A stretch of 64,000 nucleotides of DNA from Gammaproteobacteria bacterium (lineage in GTDB: Bacteria; Pseudomonadota; Gammaproteobacteria; SZUA-152), in the NCBI GenBank assembly GCA_011321815.1, contig DROS01000019.1, positions 4,118-68,117 on the forward strand. Direction: 5' to 3'. Made by a program: the position numbers and the translations under genes. Shown here in pieces: positions 1-37,661 of this stretch (position 1 is the first letter of the stretch; each line of letters opens with the position of its first letter). Under the pieces are notes generated by a model that made no database searches, was not told where the DNA came from, and saw only the letters and a program-made list of their open reading frames with translations.

Positions 1-106
1 TCAGTGTTTATGAACGTTTTTTTTCTTTTTGGCGCCATGCTCATGTACCTTTGTTGTACCTGTTGCTGTTTAGTGGTGTGGTGCATGTGATTGCTGTGCA
101 TATGTA

Positions 107-1741
107 TTGAATGGCATGTTTTTACCAAGGATAATTTTTGTTGTCGGGGTAATGCTGTTTATCGCTGTACTGAACTACGTGCAGGCGGGAATGCTGGATT
201 CGATGGAGAAGGCGTTAATGCCGGGTGAACTTTCCGCAGCTCATGCCCGGTTTGAAAATAATTGCACAGATTGCCACAAATTATTCGGACAGGAACAACA
301 AAACCGCTTATGCCTGGATTGTCATGATCATAAAAATATCGCTGGAGATATTAAAAACGGAAGGGGATATCACGGGCGTATTCCTGATGTAAAAAACAAG
401 GAATGTCGTGTTTGTCATTCAGAACACAAAGGACGGCAGTATTCCATCGTGCTACTGGATAAACAGGCTTTTGACCATCGTTTAACCGATTTTCCCCTGC
501 GTGGACGACATGGTGATGCACCCTGTCAGGCTTGCCATAAAAACAATAAAAAAACCGGTAAAGCAAAACCTTATCACCAGGCGCCGAAACAATGTGTCAA
601 GTGTCACAAACCTGATGATGCGCATGATGGACGCCTGGGAAAACAGTGCGGTAGTTGCCATACACAAATGCGCTGGCAGAATTTTCGCTTTGATCATGCG
701 ACGACCAAGTTCAAGTTAAAAGGAAAACACAAAGGTGTGGAATGCCGTTTATGTCACCCGCAAGAACGTTACAGTGGTGTGCCCGGAAAATGTGTTGCCT
801 GTCACAAAGGTGATGATAAACACAAAGGGCGCTATGGTAAAAAATGTCAGGACTGTCACTCAGTATCTGGCTGGGGAAGCCAGAAATTTGATCACAACAA
901 GGATACGGACTATCCGCTGAAGGGGCGACACATGTCGGTGACCTGCCAGCAGTGCCATCGCAGCGAAGGCTTTAAAGTCTATGTGAAGGAAAACACGAAG
1001 AAGAAAAATAAAAAATCAACTACGGATTGTTATGCCTGTCACCGTTTACAGGACGAACACAAAGGGCAATACGGGCGTAAATGTCACGCTTGCCACACGG
1101 TGAAAGCCTGGAATAAATCTACGTTTGACCATAAAAAAACAGATTTCCCGCTGAAGGGAAAACATAAAAAAGTGGCCTGCGGTGATTGTCACCCGGGTGT
1201 GCTTTATGAAGAAAATTTAAAAACGGACTGTTTTTCCTGCCATCGACAGGACGATGTACATCATGAAAAACAGGGGAAAAAATGCCAGGAATGTCACAAT
1301 GAAGAAGGTTGGCGGCATAACGTTAATTTTGATCATGATTTGGTGAAATTCCCATTATTGGGTGCCCATGTAGCACTGGCATGCGAAGAGTGCCACGATT
1401 CCGGAAGTTTTAAGGACACCAAAGCATCGTGTTTAGCGTGTCATAAGGGCAATGATGTACACGAGCGCAGTCTGGGAGCGCAATGTGATGTGTGTCATTA
1501 CGTGGGCGACTGGAAGGCCTGGGAGTTTGATCATGATAAACAGACAGATTTTGAGCTGGAAGGTAAACACAAAGGCATTGTCTGTAAGGCCTGCCACCGG
1601 GAACCTGTGAAGAACGAGATGGATATGCCCAATGATTGTCAGGATTGCCATTTGCAGGATGACGCACATGACGGAGAGTTTGGGCGTCGCTGCCAGCGTT
1701 GCCACAATACGGAATCTTTCTCTGAAATAAATATGCGGTAA
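107..1741 (+). CDS. Secreted multihaem c-type cytochrome with 21 CXXCH motifs, built from repeated c7-like triads (FDH..CxxCH / CxxCH / DxHDGxxGxxCxxCH). It has an N-terminal signal-anchor helix. The true start may be the ATG at 116.
   Basis: I counted 21 CXXCH motifs in the translation. They fall into a periodic three-haem pattern with extra conserved His, like polymerised cytochrome c7. The N-terminus MFLPRIIFVVGVMLFIAVLNYVQA is hydrophobic. Coordinate 107 is a TTG and an ATG lies at 116. Confidence 0.85.
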   Translation: MNGMFLPRIIFVVGVMLFIAVLNYVQAGMLDSMEKALMPGELSAAHARFENNCTDCHKLFGQEQQNRLCLDCHDHKNIAGDIKNGRGYHGRIPDVKNKECRVCHSEHKGRQYSIVLLDKQAFDHRLTDFPLRGRHGDAPCQACHKNNKKTGKAKPYHQAPKQCVKCHKPDDAHDGRLGKQCGSCHTQMRWQNFRFDHATTKFKLKGKHKGVECRLCHPQERYSGVPGKCVACHKGDDKHKGRYGKKCQDCHSVSGWGSQKFDHNKDTDYPLKGRHMSVTCQQCHRSEGFKVYVKENTKKKNKKSTTDCYACHRLQDEHKGQYGRKCHACHTVKAWNKSTFDHKKTDFPLKGKHKKVACGDCHPGVLYEENLKTDCFSCHRQDDVHHEKQGKKCQECHNEEGWRHNVNFDHDLVKFPLLGAHVALACEECHDSGSFKDTKASCLACHKGNDVHERSLGAQCDVCHYVGDWKAWEFDHDKQTDFELEGKHKGIVCKACHREPVKNEMDMPNDCQDCHLQDDAHDGEFGRRCQRCHNTESFSEINMR

Positions 1742-1789
1742 TTACTTGCCTGGTTGATATGCAGAATTGGAAACATTAAAGGTGACGGG

Positions 1790-4048
1790 ATGAAAATCAG
1801 GAATTGTTTAACACAGCATGTGTTGCTGCTGGTTACTTTGTGGTTGCTATTGCCTGCATTGAGCATGGCTGCGCCAAAACAGGATTTTGACCATTTTGAG
1901 ACGGGCTTTCCCTTGTCCGGCCAGCATCAGACGGTGCCTTGCGCCGCCTGTCACTTGCGTGGAGTCTTCAAGGGAACGCCATTGACCTGCAACGGTTGCC
2001 ATAATGGTTCCATTGCACCCGGCAAGCCGGATCGGCATATCGCCAACACAGAGACTTGTGATGATTGTCATACCATCTTTGCCTGGCAGGCTGCGGCTAT
2101 GGATCATTCGTCTGTGACAGGTTCATGTACGCAATGCCACAATACCCGTTTGTCTGCGCAGCATATTCAAACCCGTGCCCAGTGTGATGAATGTCATGGC
2201 ACAGTGGGTTGGTTGCCTGCGAGATTTACGCATGATGCTGTATCGAAAAATTGCAGCAATTGCCATAATGGGATAACAGCAAAGGGAAAATCCGCGAACC
2301 ACATTCAGACAGCGGAGCAGTGTGATGGCTGTCATAACACTGTGGCCTGGTTACCCGCCCGCTTTGATCACGGAAGTGCGACGGGTTCATGCAGTAGTTG
2401 CCATAATGGAACGACGGCGACCGGGAAACACAGTGCTCATGTGACAACTTCAGGCGAGTGCGAACTTTGCCATGCGACGACAGCCTGGTTGCCTGCAACC
2501 TTTAATCACAGCTCATTCAGTGGCGCCTGCAACAGCTGTCATAACGGCGTGACGGCTACCGGTAAATCCGGCCGTCATTTACAAACCACATCTGATTGTG
2601 TTGATTGCCACAGCACCAATGCCTGGTTACCGGCAAATTTCTCACATGATGGCATTACGGGAACATGCAGTTCTTGCCATGACGGTGGTATTACGTCGGG
2701 TAAATCAAGTAATCATATTCAAACCACTGGCGAATGCGACGTGTGTCACAGCACGAATGCCTGGTTACCCACCCGCTTTGATCACGGCAGTGCGACGGGT
2801 TCATGCAGTAGTTGCCACAATGGAACGACGGCGACCGGGAAACACAGTGCTCATGTGACGACTTCAGGCGAGTGTGAACTTTGCCACAGCACGAATGCCT
2901 GGTTACCCGCCCGTTTTGATCACGGCAGCGCGACGGGTTCATGCAGCAGTTGCCATAATGGAACGACGGCGACCGGGAAACACAGCGCCCATGTGACGAC
3001 TTCAGGCGAGTGTGAACTTTGCCACAGCACGAGTGCCTGGTTACCCGCCCGCTTTGATCACGGCAGTGCGACGGGTTCATGCAGTAGTTGCCATAATGGA
3101 ACGACGGCGACCGGGAAACACAGTGCTCATGTGACAACTTCAGGCGAGTGTGAACTTTGCCACACGACGACAGCCTGGTTGCCCGCAACTTTTGATCACA
3201 ACTCGTTCAATGGCGCCTGCAACAGCTGCCACAACGGTGTGACGGCTACCGGTAAATCCGGCCGTCATTTACAAACTACATCTGATTGTGTTGATTGCCA
3301 CAGCACCAATGCCTGGTTACCGGCAAATTTCTCACATGATGGTATTACCGGAAGGTGCAGCTCTTGTCATGATGGTGGTGTTGCGCTGGGCAAATCCGGC
3401 ACTCACATTCAAACCACTGGTGAGTGTGATGTCTGTCATGGTACCAATGCCTGGTTGCCTGCCCGCTTTGATCATGGCAGTGCGACAGGTTCATGCAGTA
3501 GTTGCCATAATGGAACGACGGCGACCGGGAAACACAATAACCATGTGACGACTTCCGGGGAATGTGGAGTTTGTCATACAACAACGGCGTGGTTGCCTGC
3601 AATCTTCGATCATGATTCATCAAGCGGCCTTTGTAACAGTTGCCACAATGGAGTGACGGCAACGGGCAAGGCCGATAATCATTTCATTTCATCCAGGCAA
3701 TGTGACGAATGCCATACTACACAGAGCTGGACATCGGTACGCTATAACCATGTGGCGATCGGCTACCCAGGTGGCCATAATGGTTTGTCATGCAATGGAT
3801 GTCACAAAGGAAACAGCGAATCTTCAGTCTGGGAAAATCCTGGCTACAAACCTGATTGTGCAGGTTGCCATGCGGATGACTGGGAAAGTGATGAACATAA
3901 AAAAACGAAAAATCCACGCACCATTTTTTATACCATCAGTGAATTGCGTGATTGTTCATCATCATGTCATGAGTACACGGACAACACGTTCACGACTATT
4001 AAAAAGAGACGTAACAGAGAACATAGCCCGAATGGCGGAGATTTTTAA
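1790..4048 (+). CDS. Secreted giant multihaem c-type cytochrome with about 29 CXXCH plus one CX3CH. It is made of about 14 tandem 46-aa di-haem modules. The signal peptide is MKIRNCLTQHVLLLVTLWLLLPALSMA.
   Basis: The ORF track starts at a TTG at 1754. An ATG at 1790 is preceded by AGGTGA and followed by a classic Sec signal peptide. The translation is a string of modules WLPxxF[DNS]H-x5-CxxCHNGxTAxGKxxxH[IV]xTxxxCxxCHxTxA. Confidence 0.85.
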   Translation: MKIRNCLTQHVLLLVTLWLLLPALSMAAPKQDFDHFETGFPLSGQHQTVPCAACHLRGVFKGTPLTCNGCHNGSIAPGKPDRHIANTETCDDCHTIFAWQAAAMDHSSVTGSCTQCHNTRLSAQHIQTRAQCDECHGTVGWLPARFTHDAVSKNCSNCHNGITAKGKSANHIQTAEQCDGCHNTVAWLPARFDHGSATGSCSSCHNGTTATGKHSAHVTTSGECELCHATTAWLPATFNHSSFSGACNSCHNGVTATGKSGRHLQTTSDCVDCHSTNAWLPANFSHDGITGTCSSCHDGGITSGKSSNHIQTTGECDVCHSTNAWLPTRFDHGSATGSCSSCHNGTTATGKHSAHVTTSGECELCHSTNAWLPARFDHGSATGSCSSCHNGTTATGKHSAHVTTSGECELCHSTSAWLPARFDHGSATGSCSSCHNGTTATGKHSAHVTTSGECELCHTTTAWLPATFDHNSFNGACNSCHNGVTATGKSGRHLQTTSDCVDCHSTNAWLPANFSHDGITGRCSSCHDGGVALGKSGTHIQTTGECDVCHGTNAWLPARFDHGSATGSCSSCHNGTTATGKHNNHVTTSGECGVCHTTTAWLPAIFDHDSSSGLCNSCHNGVTATGKADNHFISSRQCDECHTTQSWTSVRYNHVAIGYPGGHNGLSCNGCHKGNSESSVWENPGYKPDCAGCHADDWESDEHKKTKNPRTIFYTISELRDCSSSCHEYTDNTFTTIKKRRNREHSPNGGDF
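2348..3727. repeat. Intragenic tandem array of ten 138-bp units, each encoding one 46-aa di-haem module. There are three variants, A, B and C. Units at 2762-2899, 2900-3037 and 3038-3175 are near-identical. The 414-bp block A-B-C at 2348-2761 is duplicated at 3038-3451.
   Basis: Direct reading of the sequence. The string tggttacccgcccgctttgatcacggcagtgcgacgggttcatgcagtagttgccataatggaacgacggcgaccgggaaacacagtgctcatgtgac recurs with only a few substitutions. Confidence 0.8.
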
Positions 4049-4079
4049 GCTTGTCCAAAACTGTAAAAAATAGAATGCA

Positions 4080-6170
4080 ATGAGAGGTTTTCGGTTTTGG
4101 TGTCAGGTGATGGGAGTATACTTCGCAGTATCTTCCCAGGTCTGGGCATTGCCAAATCAATCACTGGAAAGTATTGAATATCTGACTCATCAAGGGATGG
4201 CTGCGATAGAAATTGGTTTTGCCCAACCAGTGATTTACATGTCGAATTTTCCGCTGGAATCTGGTGCAACGCTACAAATTTTTATCGGGCCGCGCACTGC
4301 TGTGGATGTCGATGTGGATAAGCTTCCTTATACCCAGGCGATGCGCGCACCAGATTCCGGTGAGATACCGCTGCGGCAAGTGACATTCCATATTAACGAA
4401 GCCGGTGAAACCTCCATTGTTGTGGATTTTAAGCGGGTGGTGAATTTTACGATATCGGCTGGTCGTCGTTTTAACACGTTGATGATTGTTTTTCCGGAAT
4501 TGAGAATCACGCAGGCGGTACCGTTGAAAAAAGCACGTACTGTGGAGATAGTTGACAGCAAAGCTTTCAGGTTGCTGGTGTCGGGGCGCAAGGCTCTCAA
4601 GCAGCATAAAAACAAAATGGCTATTCGTATTTTTACCGGGATGCTGGAATTGCCCGAAAGCCCGGAACGACAGGAGGCAATGGAATTGTTGGGAGTGGCA
4701 CGGGAACGCAACCAGCAAAAGGCACATGCCAGGGCCATGTATCAGGAATACCTGAAGCAATACCCAAAGAGTGAAGGCGCGGCACGGGTCAAACAGCGGT
4801 TACAGGATTTATTGCATGCACAGTTAAAACCCCGGGCGAAACTGAAACCCATCAAGAAATCAAAGGACAGAAAAACTACTTCACGTATCTATGGCAGCTT
4901 TGCCCAGTATTATTATCATGGTGAAAATAGCGTTGAAAATGCCGGTAGCTCGGTGGATCAATCCTTGTTATTGAATCAATTGTCTGTTAATTGGCGTATT
5001 CGTAATGCCGACTATGATATTCGCAACTTTGTTTACACCAACCAGAGTTATGACTTTTCCAGTGAGACAGGTAAGGCAGTGACTCTGGAGACGGCGTATA
5101 GTCAATTTAAAAACAGCCGCTGGGGTTTTTCGGGTCGTGCTGGTCGGCAAACCGGCTCCGGCGGTGGCGTGTTGGGTAAGTTTGACGGATTACGCGCCAG
5201 TTATGATGCTACACGAAGAATCGCTGTGAATGCTGTGGCGGGCTATCCTGTCAATATCAGTGACAAACGCAGTATTCAATCACAAAAACCTTTTTGGGGA
5301 ATCGGCTTTGAATGGGATGGTGAGGGCAAAGGTGTTGATATCCTACCTTATTATATCCAACAGAAGGTAGATGGCATTATTGACCGTGAGGCTATTGGTA
5401 GCGAATTCAGATTTTTTCATGAACAAGGGAATTTTTACGGACTTATTGACTATGATATTCATTATGCGGACCTGAATATTTATCTTTTTCGTGGCCAATA
5501 TAATTGGCGAAAAAATACGATTTTTAACCTGAATCTTGATTATCGAAACAGCCCTTTATTGTTTACCTCTCATGCCTTGATTGGGCGTACGGATGTGTCG
5601 AGCATTGGTGAGTTACTGAATGTGCATAGTGAACGCAGTATTAATGAATTAGCAGAAAGCCGTGTGGGTGATTCAAGTACATTTTCATTGGGCGTGAGCC
5701 ATACCTTAAGTACACGTTATCAACTTAATGCAGACCTGACATTTGCCAGACAGAATTTTATCATCGACGGTGTCACGCCGGGCGTTTTAATCAGTGAGAA
5801 TGACCAGCAAATTTATTTTTCCGGTCAGCTTATTGCCAACAAATGGTTTAATGATCGTGATACCAGTGTGCTGGGTATGCGTCTCTCGCAGACCGGTAGC
5901 TATGATGAACTTTCGTTATCCGCCTCTAACCGGTTACTGTTGAACAATAAATGGAAATTCGACACCCGAATGCGCGTTGATTTACGTCAAGGTAATTCAG
6001 GTGAAGATTTAACCAGATACCGTCCTTCAGTGAAATGGAATTTCCGTCACAATCAGACGATGTATTACGAAACGGAAATTGGTGTGGAATGGTGGCGTTA
6101 TGGTGGCGATTCCAATAATCCTGATTTTCGACGGTTGTTTGCTAACGTAGGTTATCGCTGGGATTTTTGA
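4080..6170 (+). CDS. Outer-membrane beta-barrel protein of 696 aa. The N-terminal ~250 aa form a periplasmic, partly helical TPR-like region. The C-terminal part is a large beta-barrel ending in the beta-signal ...NVGYRWDF. It is a candidate porin or translocon partner of the two cytochromes.
   Basis: The signal peptide is MRGFRFWCQVMGVYFAVSSQVWA. The C-terminal 450 aa are rich in alternating aromatic/hydrophilic dyads and in Asn, Tyr and Gly. The protein ends in a terminal Phe with an x-Y-x-W-x-F pattern. The gene lies immediately downstream of the cytochromes, 32 nt away. Confidence 0.6.
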   Translation: MRGFRFWCQVMGVYFAVSSQVWALPNQSLESIEYLTHQGMAAIEIGFAQPVIYMSNFPLESGATLQIFIGPRTAVDVDVDKLPYTQAMRAPDSGEIPLRQVTFHINEAGETSIVVDFKRVVNFTISAGRRFNTLMIVFPELRITQAVPLKKARTVEIVDSKAFRLLVSGRKALKQHKNKMAIRIFTGMLELPESPERQEAMELLGVARERNQQKAHARAMYQEYLKQYPKSEGAARVKQRLQDLLHAQLKPRAKLKPIKKSKDRKTTSRIYGSFAQYYYHGENSVENAGSSVDQSLLLNQLSVNWRIRNADYDIRNFVYTNQSYDFSSETGKAVTLETAYSQFKNSRWGFSGRAGRQTGSGGGVLGKFDGLRASYDATRRIAVNAVAGYPVNISDKRSIQSQKPFWGIGFEWDGEGKGVDILPYYIQQKVDGIIDREAIGSEFRFFHEQGNFYGLIDYDIHYADLNIYLFRGQYNWRKNTIFNLNLDYRNSPLLFTSHALIGRTDVSSIGELLNVHSERSINELAESRVGDSSTFSLGVSHTLSTRYQLNADLTFARQNFIIDGVTPGVLISENDQQIYFSGQLIANKWFNDRDTSVLGMRLSQTGSYDELSLSASNRLLLNNKWKFDTRMRVDLRQGNSGEDLTRYRPSVKWNFRHNQTMYYETEIGVEWWRYGGDSNNPDFRRLFANVGYRWDF

Positions 6171-7143
6171 AGTGCCCGATATTTTTGAAACTTGCATTTA
6201 CTTGGAATATGGCGATATGACATTCAGTTTTGACGGATGGTTTGTTTTTCCCAATAGCCGGAATTCGTGAAGCGAGGTGGTAACCGGTGCCTGACTGTGA
6301 GCGGGAATGAAACCCACGAGTTCTTGACCATCACAGGTTTTTTCTGCCTGGATGATGATTCCTGGCGTTTCTTCATTGTTACTTTTGTTGATGTGTAATG
6401 CGTATTGTGGAATCTCTATTTCCAGTGGCGTGCTTAATGTCTCATTTCCTGACTTCAGCAAAAATGTAGCTTTTCCTTCCATGAGGTCTTGTTCTGTCGC
6501 CGTACGCCCGGTAACAAACTTGCAACTATTCAGGTCAGGCCATTTCATTTGTATTCTCTTTGTAGATAGGGATGTGCATGAAATAATTTTTGGGTTGTTT
6601 GGATACACTGTAGATTTTTTACCAAGGGCCAACAAGCGCTGAATACCACTATTGATATGGGGGTTTATGGCTGTGCGGTTCAGTATTTGGTTTTTTATCT
6701 TATATTTTTATGTCTTCAGATATTTCATGCGTTAAATGCCATTAGTGCTGGTAATACAGGCATTATTTTCAATTTTATGTTTCCCGTCATCCTTGGGGTT
6801 GACTTTCAGCACTTGTTGGTTAGTCAGGGTTATTGCTGGAATTGTTAGGGTGATTCCTGTTGGATTGTATTTGCTATTGCGTACTCTTTTTCATCATTTT
6901 TCACTTTAACCTAAATTAATCAGGTGAACGTGCATGAAATAATCTGTGCATTCCGCCTTGTCTTTTTATTCCTGGCCGAACGATTGAAACTGCTCGGCCA
7001 GTACAAAATCCAGCGTCATATTTGTTCAAATTATTCCGTGCATGCGCCTAAAGAGTGTACAGGGTCGGACGATAACGGATTTGCTGACGGTGCAGCTTTG
7101 CACTTTGGCAATTAATTTCAAAACGCTTTGAGGGGACAGATTT

Positions 7144-7338
7144 GTGAACAAACAGGAGTATGGTCGTGCGATTGGTTCGCACCTGGGAAAACCCATTTAT
7201 GAATCTTTTAAAGATCAGGGTGTGACGTATATTTTTGATCGGGTGGCGCAGTGTGATACGGAAGGTTGTCCACTGGACCAGGTCAAACCGGGTGAGTTGC
7301 TGGTGAATCCGGGTTTGATTTACAGACAGGCATCCTGA
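7144..7338 (+). CDS. Small hypothetical protein of 64 aa with a GTG start.
   Basis: The ORF has AGGGGA seven nt upstream and a hairpin downstream. I recognise no domain. Confidence 0.25.
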   Translation: MNKQEYGRAIGSHLGKPIYESFKDQGVTYIFDRVAQCDTEGCPLDQVKPGELLVNPGLIYRQAS

Positions 7339-7363
7339 TTTTAAAAAAACAACAACAATGAAA

Positions 7364-7399
7364 GGCCGGCCACGGTTTTTTCGTGGTCGGCGGCAGCTT
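7364..7399. terminator. Hairpin (ccggccacg / gtttttt / cgtggtcgg) between two convergent genes. It could act as a terminator in either direction.
   Basis: The inverted repeat is visible in the sequence. The T-run is weak, so the call is tentative. Confidence 0.3.
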
Positions 7400-7421
7400 T
7401 TCAATCAGGTTTTTTCGTGAT

Positions 7422-11405: not shown

Positions 11406-12041
11406 ATGGAAAAATTTTCGAAAATAACAGGCATCGTGGCACCCATGGATCGTTCCAACGTGGATACCGATGCCATTATTCCCAAACAGTTTTTGAAGTC
11501 CATCAAGCGTTCGGGGTTTGGTCCCAACCTGTTTGATGAGTGGCGCTATCTTGATCATGGTGAGCCGGGTATGGATAACAGTATTCGGCCATTGAACCCG
11601 GACTTTGTGCTCAACCAGCCGCGTTATCAGGGAGCGAGCATTTTATTGGCGCGAGAGAATTTTGGCTGTGGCTCCTCGCGCGAACATGCTCCTTGGGCAT
11701 TGCTTGATTACGGCTTTCGCGTCATCATCGCGCCTGGTTACGCGGACATTTTTTTCAACAACTGTTTCAAGAACGGTATTCTGCCCATTGTGCTTGATGC
11801 ACAGGTAGTGGACAGATTATTTCAGGCTGTGGCGGCTAACGAGGGCTATGCGTTAGGTGTTGACCTTGAAGCGCAGACCATCATCACGCCGGATGGCAAG
11901 AACATTACTTTTGATGTGGAAGAATTTCGTAAACATTGTTTGTTGAACGGGCTGGATGATATTGGGCTGACTTTGCAACATGTGAACGACATTCGTGCTT
12001 ATGAGGCACGGCGTAGTGCAGAAGCGCCGTGGTTGTTTTGA
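11406..12041 (+). CDS. leuD: 3-isopropylmalate dehydratase small subunit.
   Basis: The protein is 211 aa and matches the LeuD family. It sits between leuC and leuB. Confidence 0.95.
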
Positions 12042-12051
12042 AAAGAGTATA

Positions 12052-12144
12052 TAAACGCAGAGGATACGGGGGCGCAGAGACGCAAGGTTTTTTTGAATTG
12101 CTTTCTCTGTGCCTCCGTGTCTCTGCGGTCTCTGCGTTAAATAC
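12052..12144. repeat. Intergenic palindromic element, copy b (leuD-leuB spacer). It uses CGCAGAG / CTCTGCG arms in place of CGCAAAG / CTTTGCG. Its ends are TAAACGCAG... and ...TGCGTTAAATAC.
   Basis: Visible in the sequence. The arm substitutions are compensatory and preserve pairing. Confidence 0.6.
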
Positions 12145-12157
12145 TGGAGTTGGATAA

Positions 12158-13225
12158 ATGAAAAAGATTGCAATTTTACCTGGTGATGGTATCGGCCCCG
12201 AGATTGTTGCTGAAGCAGTAAAGGTGCTGGAGTGTTTGCGTGCCGATGGTCTTGATATCGAAATGAATGAAGCTCCTGTCGGTGGTGCCGGTTACGAAGC
12301 CAGCGGCAAGCCATTACCCGATGATACGCTGGCGCTGGCCAAAGAGGCCGATGCAATTCTGCTGGGCGCGGTGGGTGGTTATCAGTGGGAATCACTGGAC
12401 ATCAGTGTACGTCCAGAAAAAGGACTGCTGGGTTTGCGGTCAGAGCTGGAGCTGTTTTCCAACCTGCGTCCTGCAATTCTTTACAAACAGTTGGCCGATG
12501 CCTCCACACTGAAGCCGGAAGTGGTTGCCGGACTGGACATTATGATCGTACGTGAACTCACCGGCGGTATTTATTTTGGTCAACCGCGTGGTGTGCGTAC
12601 TCTCGATAACGGTGAGAGACAGGGTTTTAACACGCTGGTTTATTCCGAGTCCGAGATCGAACGCATCGGACGCTCTGCTTTTGATATCGCCATGAAACGC
12701 GGCAAAAAAATCTGTTCTGTGGACAAGGCCAATGTGTTGGAATGCACGGAACTGTGGCGTGACGTGATGGAACATGTGGCCAAAGACTATCCCGAAGTGG
12801 CGTTGTCACACATGTATGTGGACAACGCGGCAATGCAGCTGGTGCGCGCCCCCAAACAATTTGATGTGATGGTCACCACCAACATGTTTGGGGATATTCT
12901 TTCTGATTGCGCCGCCATGTTGACGGGGTCTATTGGTATGCTGCCCTCGGCCTCGTTGGATGCCAATGGCAAAGGTATGTATGAACCCATTCATGGTTCG
13001 GCTCCCGATATTGCCGGGCAGAACGTGGCTAATCCACTGGCGACGATTTTATCCGTGGCGATGATGCTACGTTATTCACTGAATGAAAGTGCGATGGCAG
13101 ACCGTATTGAAAAAGCCGTTGAAAGTGTGTTGGATCAGGGGTTGCGTACGGCAGATATTTACAGTGATGGCATGCAAAAAGTGAGCACCAGTGAAATGGG
13201 CGATGCAGTCGTATCGGCTTTATAA
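12158..13225 (+). CDS. leuB: 3-isopropylmalate dehydrogenase.
   Basis: The N-terminus [17 protein letters not shown] and a length of 355 aa fit LeuB. Confidence 0.95.
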
Positions 13226-13237
13226 AGCGCGATGTTG

Positions 13238-13330
13238 TAAACGCAAAGGACGCTGAGACGCAAAGAACACAAAGTTTTTTGTTCTTTTTCTTTGCGCCCT
13301 CTGCGCCTTTGCGAACTTTGCGTTAAATAC
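13238..13330. repeat. Intergenic palindromic element, copy c (leuB-asd spacer). Its ends are TAAACGCAAAGGACGCTGAGACGCAAAG and CTTTGCGCCCTCTGCGCCTTTGCGAACTTTGCGTTAAATAC.
   Basis: Visible in the sequence. It shares termini with copies a and b. Confidence 0.6.
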
Positions 13331-13360
13331 TCAATATCAAAAAAAGCAGGTAATGGAAAA

Positions 13361-14473
13361 ATGAAAAAAGTCGGATTAATCGGTTGGCGCGGCATGGTGG
13401 GTTCAGTGCTCATGCAACGTATGCGCGATGAGAAAGATTTTGACCTCATCGAGCCGGTGTTTTTTACCACGTCACAAACCGGACAACCAGGCCCGGACAT
13501 CGGTAAAGATGTACCGTTATTAAAGGATGCAAAATCCATTAATGAGCTGCAAGCAATGGATGTCATCATTACCTGTCAGGGCGGCGGTTATACTGAAGAT
13601 ATCTATCCGCAGTTACGCAAGGCGGGGTGGGGGGGGTACTGGATTGATGCCGCTTCTACGCTGCGCATGAAAGATGATGCCATTATTGTGCTTGATCCGG
13701 TGAATCTCGATGTTATCAAAAACGGCCTGGCCAACGGCACTAAAACCTTTGTCGGTGGCAACTGCACTGTAAGCCTGATGTTAATGGCCATTGGCGGGCT
13801 GTTTGAAAATGATCTGGTGGAATGGATTTCACCCATGACTTATCAGGCGGCTTCTGGTGCTGGCGCGCAGAACATGCGGGAACTGATCCGGCAGATGGGT
13901 GCGATCAATGATTCGGTCAAAGACCTTAACGAAGACCCTGCTGCCGTAATACTGGACATCGACAAAACACTGGCCGGTTTTTTGCGTTCTGACAACTACC
14001 CCAAAGACAACTGGGGAGTGCCGTTGGCGGGCAGTCTGATCCCCTGGCTGGACTCCCCGCTGGACAGTGGTCAGACCCGCGAGGAATGGAAAGCCGAGGT
14101 GGAGACCAACAAAATTCTTGGCCGTACTGATAACGTCATTCCCGTCGACGGTATCTGTGTGCGTATTGGCGCCATGCGTTGCCACAGCCAGGCATTGACC
14201 ATCAAATTGAAGAAAGATGCACCACTGGATGAAATTTATCATATGCTGGCACAGGCAAACGATTGGGTGAAAGTCGTACCCAATGATCGTGAGGCCACGG
14301 TGAAAGATCTGACTCCTGCCGCCGTTACCGGTACGTTGACAGTACCCGTGGGGCGGTTGCGCAAACTCACCATGGGTAATGATTATCTATCTGCCTTTAC
14401 GGTGGGCGATCAGTTGTTATGGGGTGCAGCGGAACCTTTACGTCGTATGTTGCGGCTGTTGTTGGCAACATGA
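13361..14473 (+). CDS. asd: Aspartate-semialdehyde dehydrogenase.
   Basis: The N-terminus [21 protein letters not shown] matches Asd, and the protein is about 371 aa from the ATG at 13361. The ORF track starts earlier, inside the repeat element. Confidence 0.9.
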
Positions 14474-14536
14474 AGGAACGCGCACGTTTCTTAGTAAACT
14501 CGATGTTAATGGCATAAATATTGGATCATAAAAATT

Positions 14537-15571
14537 GTGAGTAAAACGTTTAATGTGGCTGTAGTGGGCGCAACCGGTCTGGTGGGTGAGGCCCTTGTAT
14601 CATTTCTGGAGGAACGTGATTTTCCTGTAGGTGATTTTTTTCCATTGGCAAGCATGCGTACAGCCGGGAAAAAGGTGGCGCTGGGCGGTAAGTATCACAC
14701 CGTGAAGGATGTGGCGGATTTTGATTTTTCACAAGCTGATATTGTCGTGTTTTGCGCGAGTGATGAGGTTTCTGCGGAATATGTACCGCGCGCTACTGCG
14801 GCGGGTTGTATGGTGGTTGATACCTCCGCACAGTTTGTGGATGACGATGATGTGCCGCTGGTGATTCCTGAAGTGAATCCACAGGCAATTACTGGTTATG
14901 TTCATCGTAAGGGGCGGCGCAATATTATTTCCAGTCCTGACAGTTCAACAATACAAATGCTGGTTGCTCTCAAACCCATTTATGATGTTGTTGGCATTGA
15001 GCGTATAAATGTGGTTAGTTATCAGGCAGTGACAGCATCAGGCAAATCCGGGATGGATGAACTTGCCAGCCAGACAATTGCCCTGTTGAATATGCAGGAC
15101 GCTAAACGTAAAATGTTCCCGCAGCAGATTGCCTTTAATGTTTTACCGCAAGTCACGGTTGCTGAAGAAAATGGTTACTTGTCCTGCGAAATGGAAATGC
15201 TGCGGGCAACGCAAAAAATTCTTGCTGATGGTGACATTTTTATCAACCCGACTACGGTGCAGGCCCCCGTGTTTTTCGGCCACTCCCAGGCAGTGCATGT
15301 GGAGACTGGCGCAAAACTGGGTGTAGACGAGGCGCGGGATCTGTTACGACAGGCCCCAGGGGTGGAGCTGCTGGATGATGATGAGCCCGGCAATTCGCCC
15401 ACGGCTGTCACACATGCGGCGGGTGAGGACGCAGTATTTGTAGGTCGTGTCCGTGAAGATATTTCTCATCCTTGTGGTTTAAATTTGTGGGTAGTTGCCG
15501 ATAATGTGCGCAAAGGGGCGGCGCTGAATTGTGTGCAAATCCTTGAGCTGTTGGTAAAAGAGGGCTTGTAA
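14537..15571 (+). CDS. usg: Asd paralogue, an aspartate-semialdehyde dehydrogenase-like protein of the USG-1 family.
   Basis: It has the NAD-binding N-terminus VAVVGATGLVGEALV and a GTG start. It sits in the asd - usg - fimV - truA position seen in pseudomonads. Confidence 0.75.
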   Translation: MSKTFNVAVVGATGLVGEALVSFLEERDFPVGDFFPLASMRTAGKKVALGGKYHTVKDVADFDFSQADIVVFCASDEVSAEYVPRATAAGCMVVDTSAQFVDDDDVPLVIPEVNPQAITGYVHRKGRRNIISSPDSSTIQMLVALKPIYDVVGIERINVVSYQAVTASGKSGMDELASQTIALLNMQDAKRKMFPQQIAFNVLPQVTVAEENGYLSCEMEMLRATQKILADGDIFINPTTVQAPVFFGHSQAVHVETGAKLGVDEARDLLRQAPGVELLDDDEPGNSPTAVTHAAGEDAVFVGRVREDISHPCGLNLWVVADNVRKGAALNCVQILELLVKEGL

Positions 15572-25009: not shown

Positions 25010-27136
25010 ATGACTAAAATAACTGATAACAGACAATCCCCTACCAATATGGATGCCCACAAAAAAACCTCAGATTGTGATTCGTTGTTGAAACTCTGGA
25101 ATTTGCGCATTCTGACCCGGTTGAATGTATTCAACCGGTTTTTTGATCGTTATGGTGGTCTGCATGACCCGGAAACGATGCATGTTTTGGGTTTGTCAGC
25201 GTTTTTACATGACGAAAATGTTGGTAAAAAAGACATATTTTCCAATCTGTCCAATACATTAAAATCACTGGAAAGTGATACGCTGACCTCTCCCCAGGAT
25301 GTTTTTTCCGTCAATATTTCAGTTCTTCAAAAATCGTTAAATCTGACACAGTGTGAGATCGATATATTGCGGTTTGTCATCGTATCGGGTTCGTCTGCGG
25401 GGTTTAATATGGTGGTCGAGACGCTTGGGGAAATGAGCAATGAACAAATCAGGAACAGCCTGTCGATAATCCTGAATGTTCCCCGCAATGAGATTGATAA
25501 TGCCATGCGCACCAATGGTACATTGATATCTTCGGGCTTGTTGCGCATCAATACCAGTGGCCACTATATGCATTCATTGCAGCAGTGCTTTGATGTCCCA
25601 CACAGTATCAAATATGCCTTGACTCAGGAGCAGAATAATCCCGGGGCAATATTACAATGTTTTTTTAAAATGGTGGATCAGTCGCACCTGTCAATTGAAG
25701 ACTTCCCTCACTTAACAGCCGATATTGATCTATTGACATGCTATTTACAGTCAGCTGAAAAGAAAAACATTCAGGGGATTAACGTATTGATATACGGTGA
25801 ACCCGGCACAGGTAAAACCGAGCTGGTGAAAACCTTAAGCCAGTACTGCGGGTTTGAGTTATACGAAATCACCATGCAGGATATGGAAGGTAATCCCATT
25901 GATGGAAAAGACCGTTTTGCTGCTTATCAGCTGACTCAGAAAATGTTGGCCAATAAAGAAAAATCAGCCATTTTGTTTGATGAAATAGAAGATGCTTTTC
26001 CTGATGTGAATTTCAGCCCGTTTGGTCATGTGACACGCCCTGATTTCAAAAAAGCCTGGGTGCATCAATTGTTGGAGGAAAATTCAATCCCTGCATTCTG
26101 GTTGTGTAACAGTGTGGTGCAATTGGATGATTCGGTGTTACGTCGTTTTGATTTTGTTCTGAATTTACGTTCTCCCACACGTAATATCCGCCGGCGTATT
26201 CTCGACAAATACCTCGGTCACCTGAATTTGAGTGAAGCATGGTTGGCGCAAATGGCGGAACATGAGCATTTGGTGCCGGCACATGCTGAGAGCGCCGCTA
26301 AAATTGCAGCTCATCTGAATGATGGAAACACAAAGGCGCTGGAGAAAAACCTGGAAAGGATTATTGGTAATAAACTACAAGTTCTGGGATTATCCCGTAA
26401 GCCCCGCACGGTTATCAGTCGTGAAACCCGCTATAGCCTTGAGTACCTGAATCCAGACCAGGATCTGGAGGCGTTAACCAGGGGGTTGCAACAAAATCAC
26501 CAGGCACGTATTTGTCTGTATGGTGCACCAGGTACCGGAAAAACAGCTTTTGCACATTATGTTGCGGAACAGCTGGACAAACCCTTGCTTAAAAAACAGG
26601 CTTCGGACATTCTCAGCAAATGGGTGGGGGAAGCAGAACAAAATATCGCTGCCATGTTTGATGAGGCTGAGGCTGACGACATGGTGTTGCTTGTTGATGA
26701 AGTGGATAGTTTTCTGCTGGATCGCGGTTCCTCTCAGAACTCATGGGAGATCACCCAGGTTAATGAATTATTGGTTCAAATGGAAAGCTTCAATGGCGTG
26801 TTTATTGCCTCTACAAATTTACTGAATCTTGTGGATGCTGCATCGTTACGCCGTTTCGATCTGAAGATAAAATTTGACTGCATGAAGCCCCAGCAGGCGT
26901 GGGCGCTGTTTCTGCAAATATTGGAAGAGCATGGCTGTACCGTTGAGGATGAAATGAAGCACTGGAAAACAGCGCTGGCGCGGTTCGATAATCTTACGCC
27001 TGGGGATTTTGCGACAGTCGTGCGCCAGTCCCGAAGCCTGAATAAAGCGATTCACCCGCGTTATTTATTGAATGCGCTGGAAAAGGAATGCAGGGCCAAG
27101 CCGGGCGCCGGAAAATCTATCGGGTTTATGGGTTGA
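25010..27136 (+). CDS. Tandem AAA+ ATPase of 708 aa with two classical AAA modules (GEPGTGKT...ILFDEIED...RRFD, then GAPGTGKT...LLVDEVD...STN...RRFD). An N-terminal domain of ~240 aa has unknown function.
   Basis: Walker A, Walker B, sensor-1 and RRFD motifs can be read twice in the translation. The gene lies in an AT-rich insertion between accD and folC. Confidence 0.75.
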   Translation: MTKITDNRQSPTNMDAHKKTSDCDSLLKLWNLRILTRLNVFNRFFDRYGGLHDPETMHVLGLSAFLHDENVGKKDIFSNLSNTLKSLESDTLTSPQDVFSVNISVLQKSLNLTQCEIDILRFVIVSGSSAGFNMVVETLGEMSNEQIRNSLSIILNVPRNEIDNAMRTNGTLISSGLLRINTSGHYMHSLQQCFDVPHSIKYALTQEQNNPGAILQCFFKMVDQSHLSIEDFPHLTADIDLLTCYLQSAEKKNIQGINVLIYGEPGTGKTELVKTLSQYCGFELYEITMQDMEGNPIDGKDRFAAYQLTQKMLANKEKSAILFDEIEDAFPDVNFSPFGHVTRPDFKKAWVHQLLEENSIPAFWLCNSVVQLDDSVLRRFDFVLNLRSPTRNIRRRILDKYLGHLNLSEAWLAQMAEHEHLVPAHAESAAKIAAHLNDGNTKALEKNLERIIGNKLQVLGLSRKPRTVISRETRYSLEYLNPDQDLEALTRGLQQNHQARICLYGAPGTGKTAFAHYVAEQLDKPLLKKQASDILSKWVGEAEQNIAAMFDEAEADDMVLLVDEVDSFLLDRGSSQNSWEITQVNELLVQMESFNGVFIASTNLLNLVDAASLRRFDLKIKFDCMKPQQAWALFLQILEEHGCTVEDEMKHWKTALARFDNLTPGDFATVVRQSRSLNKAIHPRYLLNALEKECRAKPGAGKSIGFMG

Positions 27137-32630: not shown

Positions 32631-33851
32631 CTAATGCGTAGTAATGCGTGATTTGATTGCCTGCGCCATATCTGTATTGCCAATCTCTTTGTACAGTGTA
32701 GCGAGTTCAGTTAAAACGATATCTAATACAGGCTGTGTTTCACTTTTTCCATCATCGAGTATTTCGGCGGCTTTTTTATACAAGGGCAAAGCCTGCGCAA
32801 AAAGCGCGATTTTCCGCTGTGTGGTATCTGCCAGGGCGGCAGAATTATTATTGGTTGGTATGATATTGGACTCGAAAGATGTCTGATCCTGCTCTTCGAT
32901 ACGTGCCTGGGCGTGATAAATATTGGCCAGGGTATACATCAGCAATGCCAATTGCGGGTCTGATGAGCCCAGTATATGTTGCGCAATATTCAAGGCTTCT
33001 TCATAGGCATGGCTGGCAGGGCTGTATTCACCTTGTTCGAGATAGCTTGTGCCCAGACTGATGAGTGTCTGGGCAACCTCTTCATGTTGGACGCCAAAAA
33101 CAGATTTTTTGAAAACAAGCATACGTTGCAGGATGTTTATGGCTTTGTTGTGTTTTCCTTGTGCACGGTAAATGCCACTCAGATTGCTGAGTGCATTGCC
33201 GACATAAGGATGTGTAGGCCCCACACTTGCCGACCATAAGCTGATTGCCTGCTGGTAAAAAGTTGCTGCCTGTTCATATTTATGTTGGCTTTCGTACAGC
33301 ACCGCCAGATTGTAAGTTGATTGTGCAATTGCGGGATCATCTGCATGGAAGGCATTTTTGCGAATATTCAAGGCCTGTTGATGATACTTTTCAGATAGCT
33401 CGGGGCGTTGTAATTCAAAATAAACATTGCCGAGATTTGTCATGATCACCGCAAGATCGGGGTGATTTTGGCTGAGTTGCTCTTCAAGTATACGCAATGC
33501 TTCCTGTAAACGGTCTTCCGCTTTGTGCAGGTGTCCTAATGTTTGGTTGATAATGCCGAGTTTTAATAATGCATCAGCAGTATTTACATCATTTGGGCCA
33601 AAGTTCTTGTTGGCAATATCGTGAGCACGCTGGGCGGCAAAAAGCGCATTCTGGTAATCACCTTCTTCATAATAACGGATGAAATAGCTGGTCAGGTCGA
33701 TCCAAATGGTTTCAGCCAGCTCTGTTGTTTCATGGAAAGAACGAATGTTTGTTTCTTGTTCTGTTGTTGAATTAAGTGTCGGGTTGACAGAAGCAAAGAG
33801 AATGCCTGGTGCAAGCAGAAAAAAAATAAAATAAAATGTACACTGTTTCAT
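32631..33851 (-). CDS. Secreted tetratricopeptide-repeat protein.
   Basis: The signal peptide is MKQCTFYFIFFLLAPGILFASV. Repeated TPR units follow (A..Y..A..Y..G..). Confidence 0.7.
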   Translation of the reverse strand: MKQCTFYFIFFLLAPGILFASVNPTLNSTTEQETNIRSFHETTELAETIWIDLTSYFIRYYEEGDYQNALFAAQRAHDIANKNFGPNDVNTADALLKLGIINQTLGHLHKAEDRLQEALRILEEQLSQNHPDLAVIMTNLGNVYFELQRPELSEKYHQQALNIRKNAFHADDPAIAQSTYNLAVLYESQHKYEQAATFYQQAISLWSASVGPTHPYVGNALSNLSGIYRAQGKHNKAINILQRMLVFKKSVFGVQHEEVAQTLISLGTSYLEQGEYSPASHAYEEALNIAQHILGSSDPQLALLMYTLANIYHAQARIEEQDQTSFESNIIPTNNNSAALADTTQRKIALFAQALPLYKKAAEILDDGKSETQPVLDIVLTELATLYKEIGNTDMAQAIKSRITTH

Positions 33852-34301
33852 CCGCAGGTGAATGAGAGCCGGGCGTGCATATTTTTCCCAAGGGTTATAC
33901 ATTTTACTGTGCCTTTGTATCCCGGGTATAACATGTTTCGTGATTGTTAATCCGGTCAGTTTGAACGATGCCGTAAAAATGCATCGCTTATCCTGCATAT
34001 CGGCCAACGCAAGGAGCGCTTTAGCACAGCCTCTATGGCGAATGGTTGAGAGAGCGCATTAACTTTTTGATAAGGAACGTGCACGTTTCTAATACACATC
34101 ATTTCGCCTCGCCATGAAGAAAATATGGTGCACACTTATAACCTCAATCCCAAACGCTGCGGGTATATGTGGCCACTTTTAAAGCGGGAAATTATTTTTT
34201 CTGTTTATCAACAGGATAGGATGGCTATTCAGCAGGTGACAAAAATCAGGCAGGCATCTGTGTTTTGAGGTTCAATGTTCTGCGGTAGATTACGAGGTCG
34301 T

Positions 34302-37300: not shown

Positions 37301-37562
37301 CAGAGGAATCGACGATGTCGCAAAACAATACGGTGAGTTGGCGACGTTCTGCATCTTGCTGCCTGAGTGTCTGTGTTGATGTAGTGTGATGATGGTCAGT
37401 CTTTTGTGTTTTGCTCAGGCGGGTGGCACATTGTCCACAGAACTCGAAATCAAATGGATTGCTAAAGCTGCAATTGGGACAAATGGTATTCAGCGGCGTG
37501 GCGCACTGCCCACAAAAGTGCATACCCTCTGGATTATTGAACCCACATTTTTCGCAGAGCAT
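34302..37562 (-). CDS. Multidomain signalling protein. It has an N-terminal double zinc ribbon, a class III adenylate/guanylate cyclase domain, a STAND/NB-ARC-like AAA ATPase and C-terminal TPR repeats.
   Basis: The zinc ribbon reads CEKCGFNNPEGMHFCGQC...CPNCSF...CGQC. The cyclase motifs are LTVLFCDIVDSSALSE and RIGIHTGLVVIGEIG. The P-loop is LLSGEPGLGKTRM. A long TPR region follows. An internal ATG at 37562 has an AGGAAA RBS. Confidence 0.8.
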   Translation of the reverse strand: MLCEKCGFNNPEGMHFCGQCATPLNTICPNCSFSNPFDFEFCGQCATRLSKTQKTDHHHTTSTQTLRQQDAERRQLTVLFCDIVDSSALSERIDPEELRDIMRDYRNTCNDIVNDYGGYVAQYLGDGILVYFGYPHAHEDDAQRATFAALEMVKHVPKQVYSTQQSGDIQLAVRIGIHTGLVVIGEIGGGDTRSMALGETPNIAARLQGYASENTVVISGSTHQLLGQRFECQTLGTHMLKGFSHPFNLFHVQQIRGNKNRFIKTKRPAHAMLIGRDQETGLLIERLNQARKGVGQVVLLSGEPGLGKTRMVQMVCEKVENENCLFLDCYGALYYKNSFLYPIMDMARRIIGLTEDDPPQKQISRIEKTIATLGMEPKTVTPVLAELLSISLPGKTIADAAGTNSTPQQKKQQTFDVLIDILQAVAQQRFVLLVVEDLQWIDPSTIELLSLLVDQPGLSNIFTLITFRNDFAPPWKNRTCLTQITLNRLTQKQSGSMIRQLCRGKTLPLEVFAEITNKTDGIPFFVEELTNAVLRSSLLVEKEDHFELGHHMSQLEIPSTLQDSLMSRLDNLGDDKELAQLSATLGREFTYELLLAAALQSEPNLQSSMSRLINAELFVQNGKPPKAHYRFQHALVREAAYQSLLKRTRQKYHQRISTLIKEKFPQLVTDNPEILAHHYTEAGNNGDALYYWLSAGNSAIQHSANIEAIEHLKKGLALIKKMPESPGLNRHELALQTTLGLASMMSKGYAAPEVEKAYARAYSLCQNITDTSIVFPVLCGLWEFYIVRAELEKAHKLADELQQYAAQSNIPEFLLEAKRAIGTTLFWKGNFSEALENLERHIEPQTGQAHPQATLVAYSQNAQVASLANAACVLWLLGKTDQALTRGQAALDLAKRLAHPFSQAYALHFMGTLSQLCGDHKATYRYADAQIALSETYGFSFWAATGRMLKAWAESTEQPADSICERFQQALRDYEKSGNRLARSYFQALLAELLRDAGKTDKARLTIESALRETAFTGEGFFTAELLRIKGDFAMENGADNHSLAEQYFNESLAIAKQQNANGLVLRTETSLAKLQKISTETGKPQ

Positions 37563-37661
37563 GGCAGAATTTTCCTGGTTTGCCGGTATATGCGGAAGGA
37601 GGATACCCATCCCCTCTGTGTTCAGCAAGGCGAGTGGATAAAGAATAAAACAGGAGAAAAC

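Follow-up and report, generated by a model that had tools for sequence, protein, structure and literature searches.

A predicted periplasmic 21-haem cytochrome in a PCC3-type gene cluster of a hydrothermal-vent gammaproteobacterium, with trihaem modules related to the Geobacter cytochrome GSU1996

A four-gene cluster of the PCC3 type

The window analysed here is a whole stretch of 64,000 nucleotides (nt) from a gammaproteobacterial metagenome-assembled genome (MAG; assembly GCA_011321815.1, contig DROS01000019.1, positions 4,118 to 68,117), and it opens with four adjacent genes on the same strand, the second of which, at 107..1741 (+), encodes a 21-haem cytochrome c of 544 amino acids (aa) and is the subject of this work. 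The first of the four is present only as its 3′ end at 3..110 (+), comprising the last 35 codons and the stop codon; its frame-3 translation corresponds to the C-terminus of a 300-aa open reading frame (ORF) found upstream of the cytochrome in two related loci (L001 and L029), and it contains the second W-x3-H-x13-H motif (WRHAHVPLLYLLLFSGVVH) of an inner-membrane protein. The cytochrome gene starts with TTG at 107, with an alternative ATG at 116, and contains 21 CXXCH motifs. It is followed by a gene for an extracellular multihaem cytochrome of 764 aa with 29 CXXCH motifs, a 23-aa period and a composition rich in Thr, Ser, Gly and Ala (1754..4048, +), and by a gene for a putative outer-membrane porin of 696 aa that ends in ...GYRWDF (4080..6170, +). 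The complete inner-membrane gene (5129..6031) is present on contig L081 from a hydrothermal-vent metagenome, which matches the window at 100% identity over 16,170 bases and reaches 5.9 kb further upstream. The 300-aa product of this gene has five hydrophobic segments, the W-x3-H-x13-H motif at residues 102 and 275, and SGVMG at residue 143. The identical four-gene order recurs in the related loci L001, L002, L003 and L029 and in many further loci.

This layout is that of the PCC3 clusters, which He et al. 2017 (Front Microbiol 8:1584, PMC5566968) delimited by bioinformatics as an inner-membrane protein, a periplasmic and an extracellular multihaem cytochrome, and a porin. According to the same work, the inner-membrane protein, a putative dihaem-b quinone-reactive protein, has ~300 aa and five transmembrane (TM) helices with SGXXG on TM4 and W-x3-H-x13-H on TM3 and TM5, the periplasmic cytochromes have a median of 21 haems and a low ratio of aa to haem, and the extracellular cytochrome is repetitive and rich in Thr, Ser, Ala and Gly (PMC5566968). 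PCC3 clusters are known from alpha-, beta- and gammaproteobacteria, tubeworm symbionts and isolates from hydrothermal vents among them (PMC5566968), and this occurrence in marine and hydrothermal gammaproteobacteria matches the setting of the window.

The properties listed for the first three proteins were found at the locus. The inner-membrane protein carries every motif listed by He et al.; the cytochrome at 107..1741 has 21 CXXCH in 544 aa, or 25.9 aa per haem, and a signal-peptide-like N-terminus; and the 29-haem cytochrome contains 12.3% Thr, 10.9% Ser, 10.1% Gly and 8.1% Ala. For the porin, Pfam and NCBIfam returned only TPR/YbgF matches, and no family model matched the putative barrel region, while the C-terminal Phe and the conserved homologues are consistent with a porin. 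Compared with the clusters of He et al. and Hoover et al., the window shares the layout, the inner-membrane motifs, the 21 haems at ~26 aa per haem, the Thr/Ser/Gly/Ala-rich partner and the large outer-membrane protein, and we found nothing essential that differs.

The association of these genes was surveyed in 79 related genomic loci scored by crude ORF rules, many of them on contigs that end early in the locus. A 21-haem cytochrome was present in 69 of the 79 and a motif-bearing upstream inner-membrane gene in 55; 49 had a downstream multihaem gene, with 9 to 89 haems, and 37 a porin-like ORF. In 52 of 80 loci, the cytochromes were followed by homologues of the window porin. The genes are separated by gaps of 0-40 nt in most loci. 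On the basis of gene order, sizes and published motifs, we therefore assign 107..1741 as the predicted periplasmic multihaem cytochrome of a PCC3-type cluster. We give the reading as a whole, with trihaem modules of the GSU1996 kind, vertical inheritance and a probable function as a haem wire, a probability of roughly 0.7. The window locus is another PCC3 orthologue, here in a vent MAG, of a cluster type that was already known from iron-oxidising and vent bacteria; an earlier note on this DNA had not recognised the cluster, and its PCC3 identity is added by the present analysis.

Trihaem modules and their relation to GSU1996

All 42 cysteines of the 21-haem cytochrome lie in its CXXCH motifs. 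Motifs 1-3 are spaced by 16 and 31 residues, and motifs 4-21 form six triads, as the earlier note had counted, with CXXCH-to-CXXCH spacings of 32-33, then 16-28, then 18 residues. Every triad has three additional histidines, one in FDH, 15-16 residues before the first CXXCH (rather than following the FDH-x(12-15)-CxxCH spacing first proposed), one in GxH, 4 residues before the same motif, and one in DxH, 7 residues before the third CXXCH. The pattern D-x-H-D/K-G-x-x-G described for the third segment holds in four of the six triads and fails as a strict rule, the core kept everywhere being D-x-H-x4-G-x2-C, and the period, put at about 75 aa, is 67-78 aa (mean 71) in the window protein, the family's canonical unit being 66-68 aa long. 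Across 39 aligned 21-haem orthologues, the FDH, GxH and DxH histidines are invariant, the ratio of non-motif His to haem is 1 : 1, and the repeat has no conserved Met. Because each module combines three CXXCH motifs with three further invariant histidines, all haems are probably bis-His ligated.

The whole protein matched the Pfam family Cytochrome_C7 (PF14522) over 10 stretches (3e-27, 94.7 bits), and the triads had been taken to be concatenated c7 units of the kind polymerised in Geobacter cytochromes. We examined the register of these units by cutting single units in three ways and scoring each with Cytochrome_C7, for which the cut-off is 24.8 bits. Units in the proposed register (FDH..C, C, DxH..C) stayed below the cut-off at 19.5-24.3 bits, units shifted by one haem (DxH..C, FDH..GxH..C, C) reached 26-32 bits over nearly their full length, and the third cyclic cut gave 13.7-19.4 bits. 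The module in the shifted register reads H-x7-CXXCH ... FDH ... GxH-x4-CXXCH-x11-CXXCH.

Two profiles were then searched against the PDB sequences, profile A4 built from 47 diverse units in the shifted register and, as a control, profile A5 built from units in the register first proposed. The top match of A4 was the Geobacter dodecahaem cytochrome GSU1996 (3OV0; E=2e-6, 31.1 bits), whose domains A-D aligned nearly end to end (20-81, 103-159, 181-238 and 267-317); it was followed by its own fragments 3OUQ, 3OUE and 1RWJ, and the next unrelated chain scored ~400-fold weaker. In this alignment, all four GSU1996 domains agreed with the module in the positions of their three haems, of the FDx Phe and of the ligand that precedes haem III. 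By contrast, the match of A5 to GSU1996 was split in two and permuted: residues 20-35 aligned with the last part of the profile (DxH-CXXCH) and residues 39-81 with its first part (FDH..CXXCH..CXXCH). The shifted unit is thus the one equivalent to a GSU1996 domain. The shifted register was thus picked independently by Pfam, by TIGR04257 (aa 176-234) and by the permuted A5 alignment. With a two-unit profile, generic multihaem proteins, namely MtrF (1.7e-6), HmcA, c3 and a GSU1996 fragment, scored with like strength, so that single-unit profiles were needed to single out GSU1996.

Like GSU1996, GSU0592 and GSU2210, the 'nanowire' cytochromes of Geobacter sulfurreducens, the window protein appears to be a single chain of tandem trihaem domains of ~65-80 aa. 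It shares with GSU1996 the order H-x7-CXXCH, F-D-x, ligand-x4/5-CXXCH, CXXCH, and would likewise be periplasmic and elongated; the spacings of 32-33 and 16-17 in the window modules compare with 27 and 18 in GSU1996 domain A. The differences lie mainly in the ligands. GSU1996 has 12 haems, one His-Met haem per domain, a length of 12 nm and 3-5 Å between haem edges (PMC10138318), whereas the window modules are apparently all bis-His, with no His-Met haem and no conserved Met. As judged from the alignment, the DxH histidine would correspond to the second His of 'HDIH' in GSU1996 (c7 'HxxH'), the distal ligand of haem III, and the GxH histidine adjoins the Met-containing 'M(L/A)DME' of GSU1996 and would replace the Met/His47 ligand of haem IV. 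The window modules have Asp in place of the first 'HDIH' His, and their FDH brings in an invariant His that is Leu in GSU1996 (FDL); this new histidine is a likely substitute for the lost first His of 'HxxH'. Between haem I and FDH they also have an insertion of 6 aa that includes a Trp. Further differences from GSU1996 are that the window gene lies in a cluster with genes for a porin, an inner-membrane protein and an extracellular cytochrome, and that its family is spread widely across taxa (gamma, beta, alpha, Nitrospira, Nitrospinaceae and others).

The relation to the single-domain cytochromes c7 is more distant. PpcA (1OS6) and the Desulfuromonas protein (1HH5) also hold three CXXCH haems in ~70 aa with bis-His ligation, but they are soluble carriers rather than polymers, show no significant sequence relation to the window protein and differ from it in ligand order. 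PpcA gave an E of about 1.5-3 with profile A5, over its last two haem sites (residues 49-71), and a phmmer search of the whole protein against the PDB returned nothing below E=1. With ligand histidines written as H and haem sites as C, the best register of the window protein reads H-C-H-H-C-C, c7 reads H-H-C-H-C-C, and the register first proposed reads H, H, CXXCH, CXXCH, H, CXXCH, so that each register is one transposition away from c7.

Several results weigh against the relation to c7-type domains and against the assigned function. No match to NF043011 (CytC7_Geobact) was found at E<=0.1; TIGR04257 (nanowire_3heme) reached 14.9 bits at aa 176-234 against a cut-off of 40; hhalign of alignment A3, which spans two units, against PpcA gave a probability of 19.5% over 9 columns; and the match to GSU1996 is a sum of weak domain scores (independent E-values of 0.3-46) in a sequence rich in Cys and His. 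Pfam Cytochrome_C7 matches the 29-haem neighbour even more strongly despite its 23-aa monohaem repeat, and the Pfam match is therefore not specific for the c7 fold. The AlphaFold2 model of the whole protein, built with 39 orthologues, was poor (predicted local distance difference test score 54.5, predicted template modelling score 0.25). The function of PCC3 is still called unverified in the 2025 literature, with no experiment on any of its components.

These results leave room for a repeat that is not a c7 fold at all, in which the matches to GSU1996 and Pfam would reflect similar CXXCH spacing and the haems would follow a distinct arrangement, for example the alternating parallel and T-shaped haem pairs of MtrA or NrfB. 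The transposed ligand order is consistent with this, as are the low hhalign probability against PpcA, the two-unit profile that scores MtrF, HmcA and c3 about as well as the GSU1996 fragment, the Pfam match to the 23-aa-repeat neighbour and a weak match to DmsE/MtrA (25.6 bits). A Foldseek search of a confident two-unit model against the PDB also gave no match at E<=10, a result that is uninformative for a coil-rich protein modelled without haem. We nevertheless consider a distinct fold unlikely, since GSU1996 aligns in all four domains with the single-unit profile and outscores the next unrelated chain ~400-fold, the spacings are comparable to those of GSU1996 domain A, and Pfam, TIGR04257 and the permuted alignment agree on the shifted register. 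The sequence comparisons thus favour modules that are related to the c7-type domains of GSU1996 and that lie outside the strict c7 and nanowire families. Of the c7-type polymer envisaged in the earlier note, the tandem trihaem modules and GSU1996 as the best solved relative hold, in the shifted register; the original register, strict family membership and the c7 ligation do not, and PpcA is barely detectable.

Other multihaem families were compared and rejected, including MtrA/DmsE (TIGR03508, 25.6 against 192.2 bits), HmcA (NF045713, 12.1 against 400 bits) and the ExtN/ExtO and GSU2203 families, whose scores were far under their cut-offs. The Desulfovibrio 16-haem HmcA and the 9-haem cytochromes are likewise class III multihaem polymers and gave weak profile matches (1Z1N at 1.6e-5, 1DUW and 19HC), but they are built of tetrahaem c3-like domains in an irregular architecture. 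Nor did the 29-haem neighbour prove to be a Paired-CXXCH polymer, as had been suggested, there being no match to Pfam Paired_CXXCH_1 at E<=0.1.

From these comparisons we delineated the parts of the 21-haem cytochrome. A signal peptide is predicted from the sequence at aa 1-27 (107..187, +), with a hydrophobic stretch and an AxA-like site (...VQA|G) whose A-x-A is conserved in alignment A2, although this region may instead be an uncleaved membrane anchor. The gene call on contig L081 (6073..7662) begins the cytochrome at Met16, giving 529 aa; TTG at 107 or ATG at 116 is the more plausible start for export, because a start at Met16 loses the charged n-region of the signal peptide. The stop codon of the inner-membrane gene (108..110) overlaps the TTG start. 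An N-terminal c3-like module with haems 1-3 follows at aa 40-110 (224..436, +), matched by Pfam Cytochrom_c3_2 at aa 46-110 and Cytochrom_CIII at aa 45-111 and unlike the canonical repeat. The six tandem c7-type trihaem modules, placed in the shifted register by the Pfam register test and by the unit profiles against the PDB, would hold haems 3-20 (362..1651, +), with boundaries at aa 86-167 (a divergent module), 168-233, 234-312, 313-379, 380-446 and 447-515. The C-terminal cap consists of DxH, the last CXXCH (haem 21) and a short tail (1652..1738, +), in which H521, C529, C532 and H533 are invariant.

Two Lys-rich loops noticed earlier are real, KNNKKTGKAKP at aa 145-155 (539..571, +) and KENTKKKNKKSTTD at aa 295-308 (989..1030, +). 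Both sit in the spacer between the first and the second CXXCH of a triad, and at these positions the orthologues are basic yet variable in length and sequence, the spacers measuring 12-18 aa for the first loop and 17-29 aa for the second. The cytochrome has an isoelectric point (pI) of 8.65 (family median 8.7) and a balance of K+R-D-E of +17. The positive surface deduced from the loops does not follow, however, because 21 haems would add 42 propionate groups.

A total of 4102 homologues of the 21-haem cytochrome were found, and in 115 of the 120 best homologues the haem count was 21, 24, 27, 30, 33, 36 or 39; members of the family differ by whole trihaem modules. The periplasmic PCC3 subunit of Gallionellaceae was reported to have 21, 24 or 27 haems (Hoover et al. 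2023, PMC9900912/PMC10734462). Betaproteobacterial and Burkholderiaceae homologues that are ~41% identical were among the matches. The exact cytochrome protein was absent from a collection of 15 billion proteins searched with either start codon. The longest periplasmic-cytochrome homologues (P0002, P0012, P0014 and P0017) have 868-949 aa and 36-39 haems, one with 39 haems being labelled Nitrospira sp., and 30 haems were counted in homologues from MAGs of Nitrospira and Burkholderiaceae. The number of modules thus varies by lineage, which could mirror differences in the cell envelope. He et al. 2017 and Hoover et al. 2023 mention repeats but not a trihaem c7-type module, a module register or a multiples-of-three rule, and in the literature that joins PCC3 with triheme we found no description of the module architecture.

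A recent internal duplication of the 21-haem gene was considered and rejected. No tandem DNA repeat was found in the gene and its repeat units are just 27-33% identical to one another in the window protein, so the repeats are ancient. The 29-haem gene differs in this respect. It carries a 138-bp tandem DNA repeat (46 aa, two haems) in ~6 copies with 73% identity at 2345..3321, its product has several nearly identical 46-aa blocks, and because of this tandem repeat we regard the 29-haem gene, unlike the 21-haem gene, as still expanding or contracting.

Descent of the cytochrome gene

A search for relatives with one genome per species yielded 313, of which the best 27, at 89% to 44% identity, were all labelled Gammaproteobacteria or unclassified Proteobacteria and included Chromatiales, Ectothiorhodospiraceae, Thiohalomonadales and Thioalkalispiraceae. 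Delta-labelled MAGs appeared below ~44% identity, together with Nitrospinaceae, Nitrospiraceae, Alphaproteobacteria, Spirochaetales, Planctomycetales and Omnitrophota. A neighbour-joining tree built from the window protein and 70 orthologues with 21 haems placed the former deep in a gamma clade, with the delta-labelled sequences in clades of their own and the alpha sequences in another. The chromosomal setting is conserved as well. The porin gene is followed by two small ORFs, lysR, leuC and leuD, an order kept in four related MAGs, and across these four the identities of the cytochrome (89, 75, 73 and 67%) track those of LysR (88, 83, 70 and 68%). The LeuC of the window is identical to HHI92249.1 from a gammaproteobacterial MAG.

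The earlier note had taken the cytochrome for a c7 polymer, in its original register, acquired horizontally from Geobacter-like deltaproteobacteria. The composition of the gene offers some support for a transfer, with a GC content of 0.456 and a GC content at third codon positions (GC3) of 0.444 compared with 0.521±0.037 and 0.554±0.053 for the other window genes, ~2 standard deviations low in both; the Pfam Cytochrome_C7 match, GSU1996 as the closest solved relative and the homologues of 40-44% identity in some delta-labelled MAGs point the same way. However, the synonymous-codon distance of 0.074 is typical of the window (0.086±0.021), the low GC goes with the Lys-rich composition, and it is equally low in the porin gene and in two unrelated window genes. 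The note had itself reserved that closest homologues among gammaproteobacteria would speak against transfer, and such homologues are what the search and the tree returned. Together with the same site beside lysR-leuCD in four MAGs, identities that follow the housekeeping genes, a tree coherent with taxonomy, the report of PCC3 in alpha-, beta- and gammaproteobacteria (PMC5566968) and a register that stays under the Pfam cut-off and aligns with GSU1996 only in permuted order, this makes acquisition from deltaproteobacteria very improbable. The cytochrome gene is a vertically inherited part of the gammaproteobacterial chromosome of a hydrothermal-vent MAG.

A candidate haem wire across the periplasm, and neighbouring genes

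The N-terminal c3-like head, the six trihaem modules and the one-haem cap would form a continuous chain of 21 closely packed bis-His haems in a cytochrome that its signal-peptide-like N-terminus, ending in VQA|G, suggests is exported. If each haem adds ~1 nm, the figure for the 12-nm GSU1996, the chain would measure ~20 nm, an estimate by analogy only because the model of the whole protein is poor. Such a length would let electrons cross the periplasm between the inner-membrane protein, a putative quinone-linked dihaem b, and the porin-embedded or extracellular cytochrome, and the flow could be uptake or discharge. By analogy with GSU1996, we consider a periplasm-spanning haem wire the most likely role. 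The periplasm-spanning role proposed in the earlier note agrees with the published hypothesis for the PCC3 family, whose periplasmic subunit in Gallionellaceae was suggested to be long enough to span the periplasm (PMC9900912/PMC10734462).

The closest functional analogues are the decahaem cytochromes MtrA, MtoA and PioA, which form a haem chain on the periplasmic side and have an outer-membrane porin as partner, joined in MtrCAB by an extracellular cytochrome. The window protein differs in having twice their number of haems, in being built of modules with three haems and not five, and in its inner-membrane partner, which is not of the CymA/NapC type.

The 21-haem cytochrome might instead be a periplasmic electron store, or capacitor, rather than a fixed wire. 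The GSU1996-type periplasmic 'nanowire' cytochromes are thought to be capacitors (PMC10138318), Hoover et al. 2023 also raise such a role for the many haems of PCC3 (PMC9900912/PMC10734462), and 21 bis-His haems could store 21 electrons. The tight coupling to membrane and extracellular partners, with gaps of 0-40 nt in most loci, fits a conduit better, and the marked concentration of haem counts at exactly 21 (69 of 79 loci) fits a constraint on length. We rate storage in place of conduction as rather improbable, noting that the two roles are compatible and not mutually exclusive.

Beyond the haem wire itself, we tentatively speculate, as an idea with less than an even chance of holding in full, that the PCC3 cytochromes are an all-bis-His branch of the c7-domain polymers in which one distal His has moved, that the number of modules (7 to 13, or 21-39 haems with a sharp mode at 21) is a ruler for the width of the periplasm, and that this single polypeptide hard-wires a new type of dihaem-b quinone oxidoreductase to an outer-membrane porin-cytochrome. 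If so, it would give the sulfur-cycling gammaproteobacteria of vents and sediments a means of direct extracellular electron exchange.

PCC3 is among the most widespread candidate routes of extracellular electron transfer outside Shewanella and Geobacter. The present analysis adds GSU1996-like trihaem modules in a defined register, probable ligation of all haems by two histidines, and differences by whole modules within the family. The defined modules therefore provide a concrete design for domain-wise expression and spectroscopy, an approach already applied to GSU1996, and haem numbers in multiples of three make a testable rule of length. For the window itself, the gain is mainly a correct annotation, that of a vertically inherited PCC3 cluster and not of a foreign Geobacter-type gene.

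Orthologues of the extracellular cytochrome vary widely in size. One in an Omnitrophota MAG has 89 CXXCH in 2148 aa (L065, 11748..18194), one in a Sedimenticola MAG has 62 (L033, 3835..8559), and those of Lamellibrachia tubeworm symbionts have 47 (L040, L044 and L052, about 11545..15200). The periplasmic partner is constant at 21 haems in the L033, L040, L044 and L052 loci and has 23 in the Omnitrophota locus. In the putative porin, aa 167-244 form an N-terminal TPR segment like those of YbgF/CpoB and BamD (TIGR02795 at 1.3e-7, below the cut-off), and the cytochrome may dock to this segment in the periplasm.

Upstream of the inner-membrane gene, contig L081 encodes on the opposite strand (3648..4979, −) a protein of 443 aa with 4Fe-4S ferredoxin and pyridine-nucleotide-disulfide oxidoreductase domains, beyond which lie a HIT-family gene and a 929-aa ORF without a family match. 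On the other side of the cluster, the ~1.2 kb after the porin gene (6171..7421) contains only short ORFs, one of which, of 145 aa (6198..6635, −), had no tblastn match in any related locus. Further along the window, three genes with the look of accessory signalling or STAND-like genes lie at 25010..27136, 32631..34007 and 34302..37682 amid an otherwise housekeeping region with leuCDB, asd, fimV and dxs; they encode a two-AAA-domain ATPase (GC 0.446), a TPR_12-rich protein (GC 0.439) and a 1126-aa adenylate/guanylate cyclase-AAA-TPR protein whose GC of 0.495 is near the window mean.

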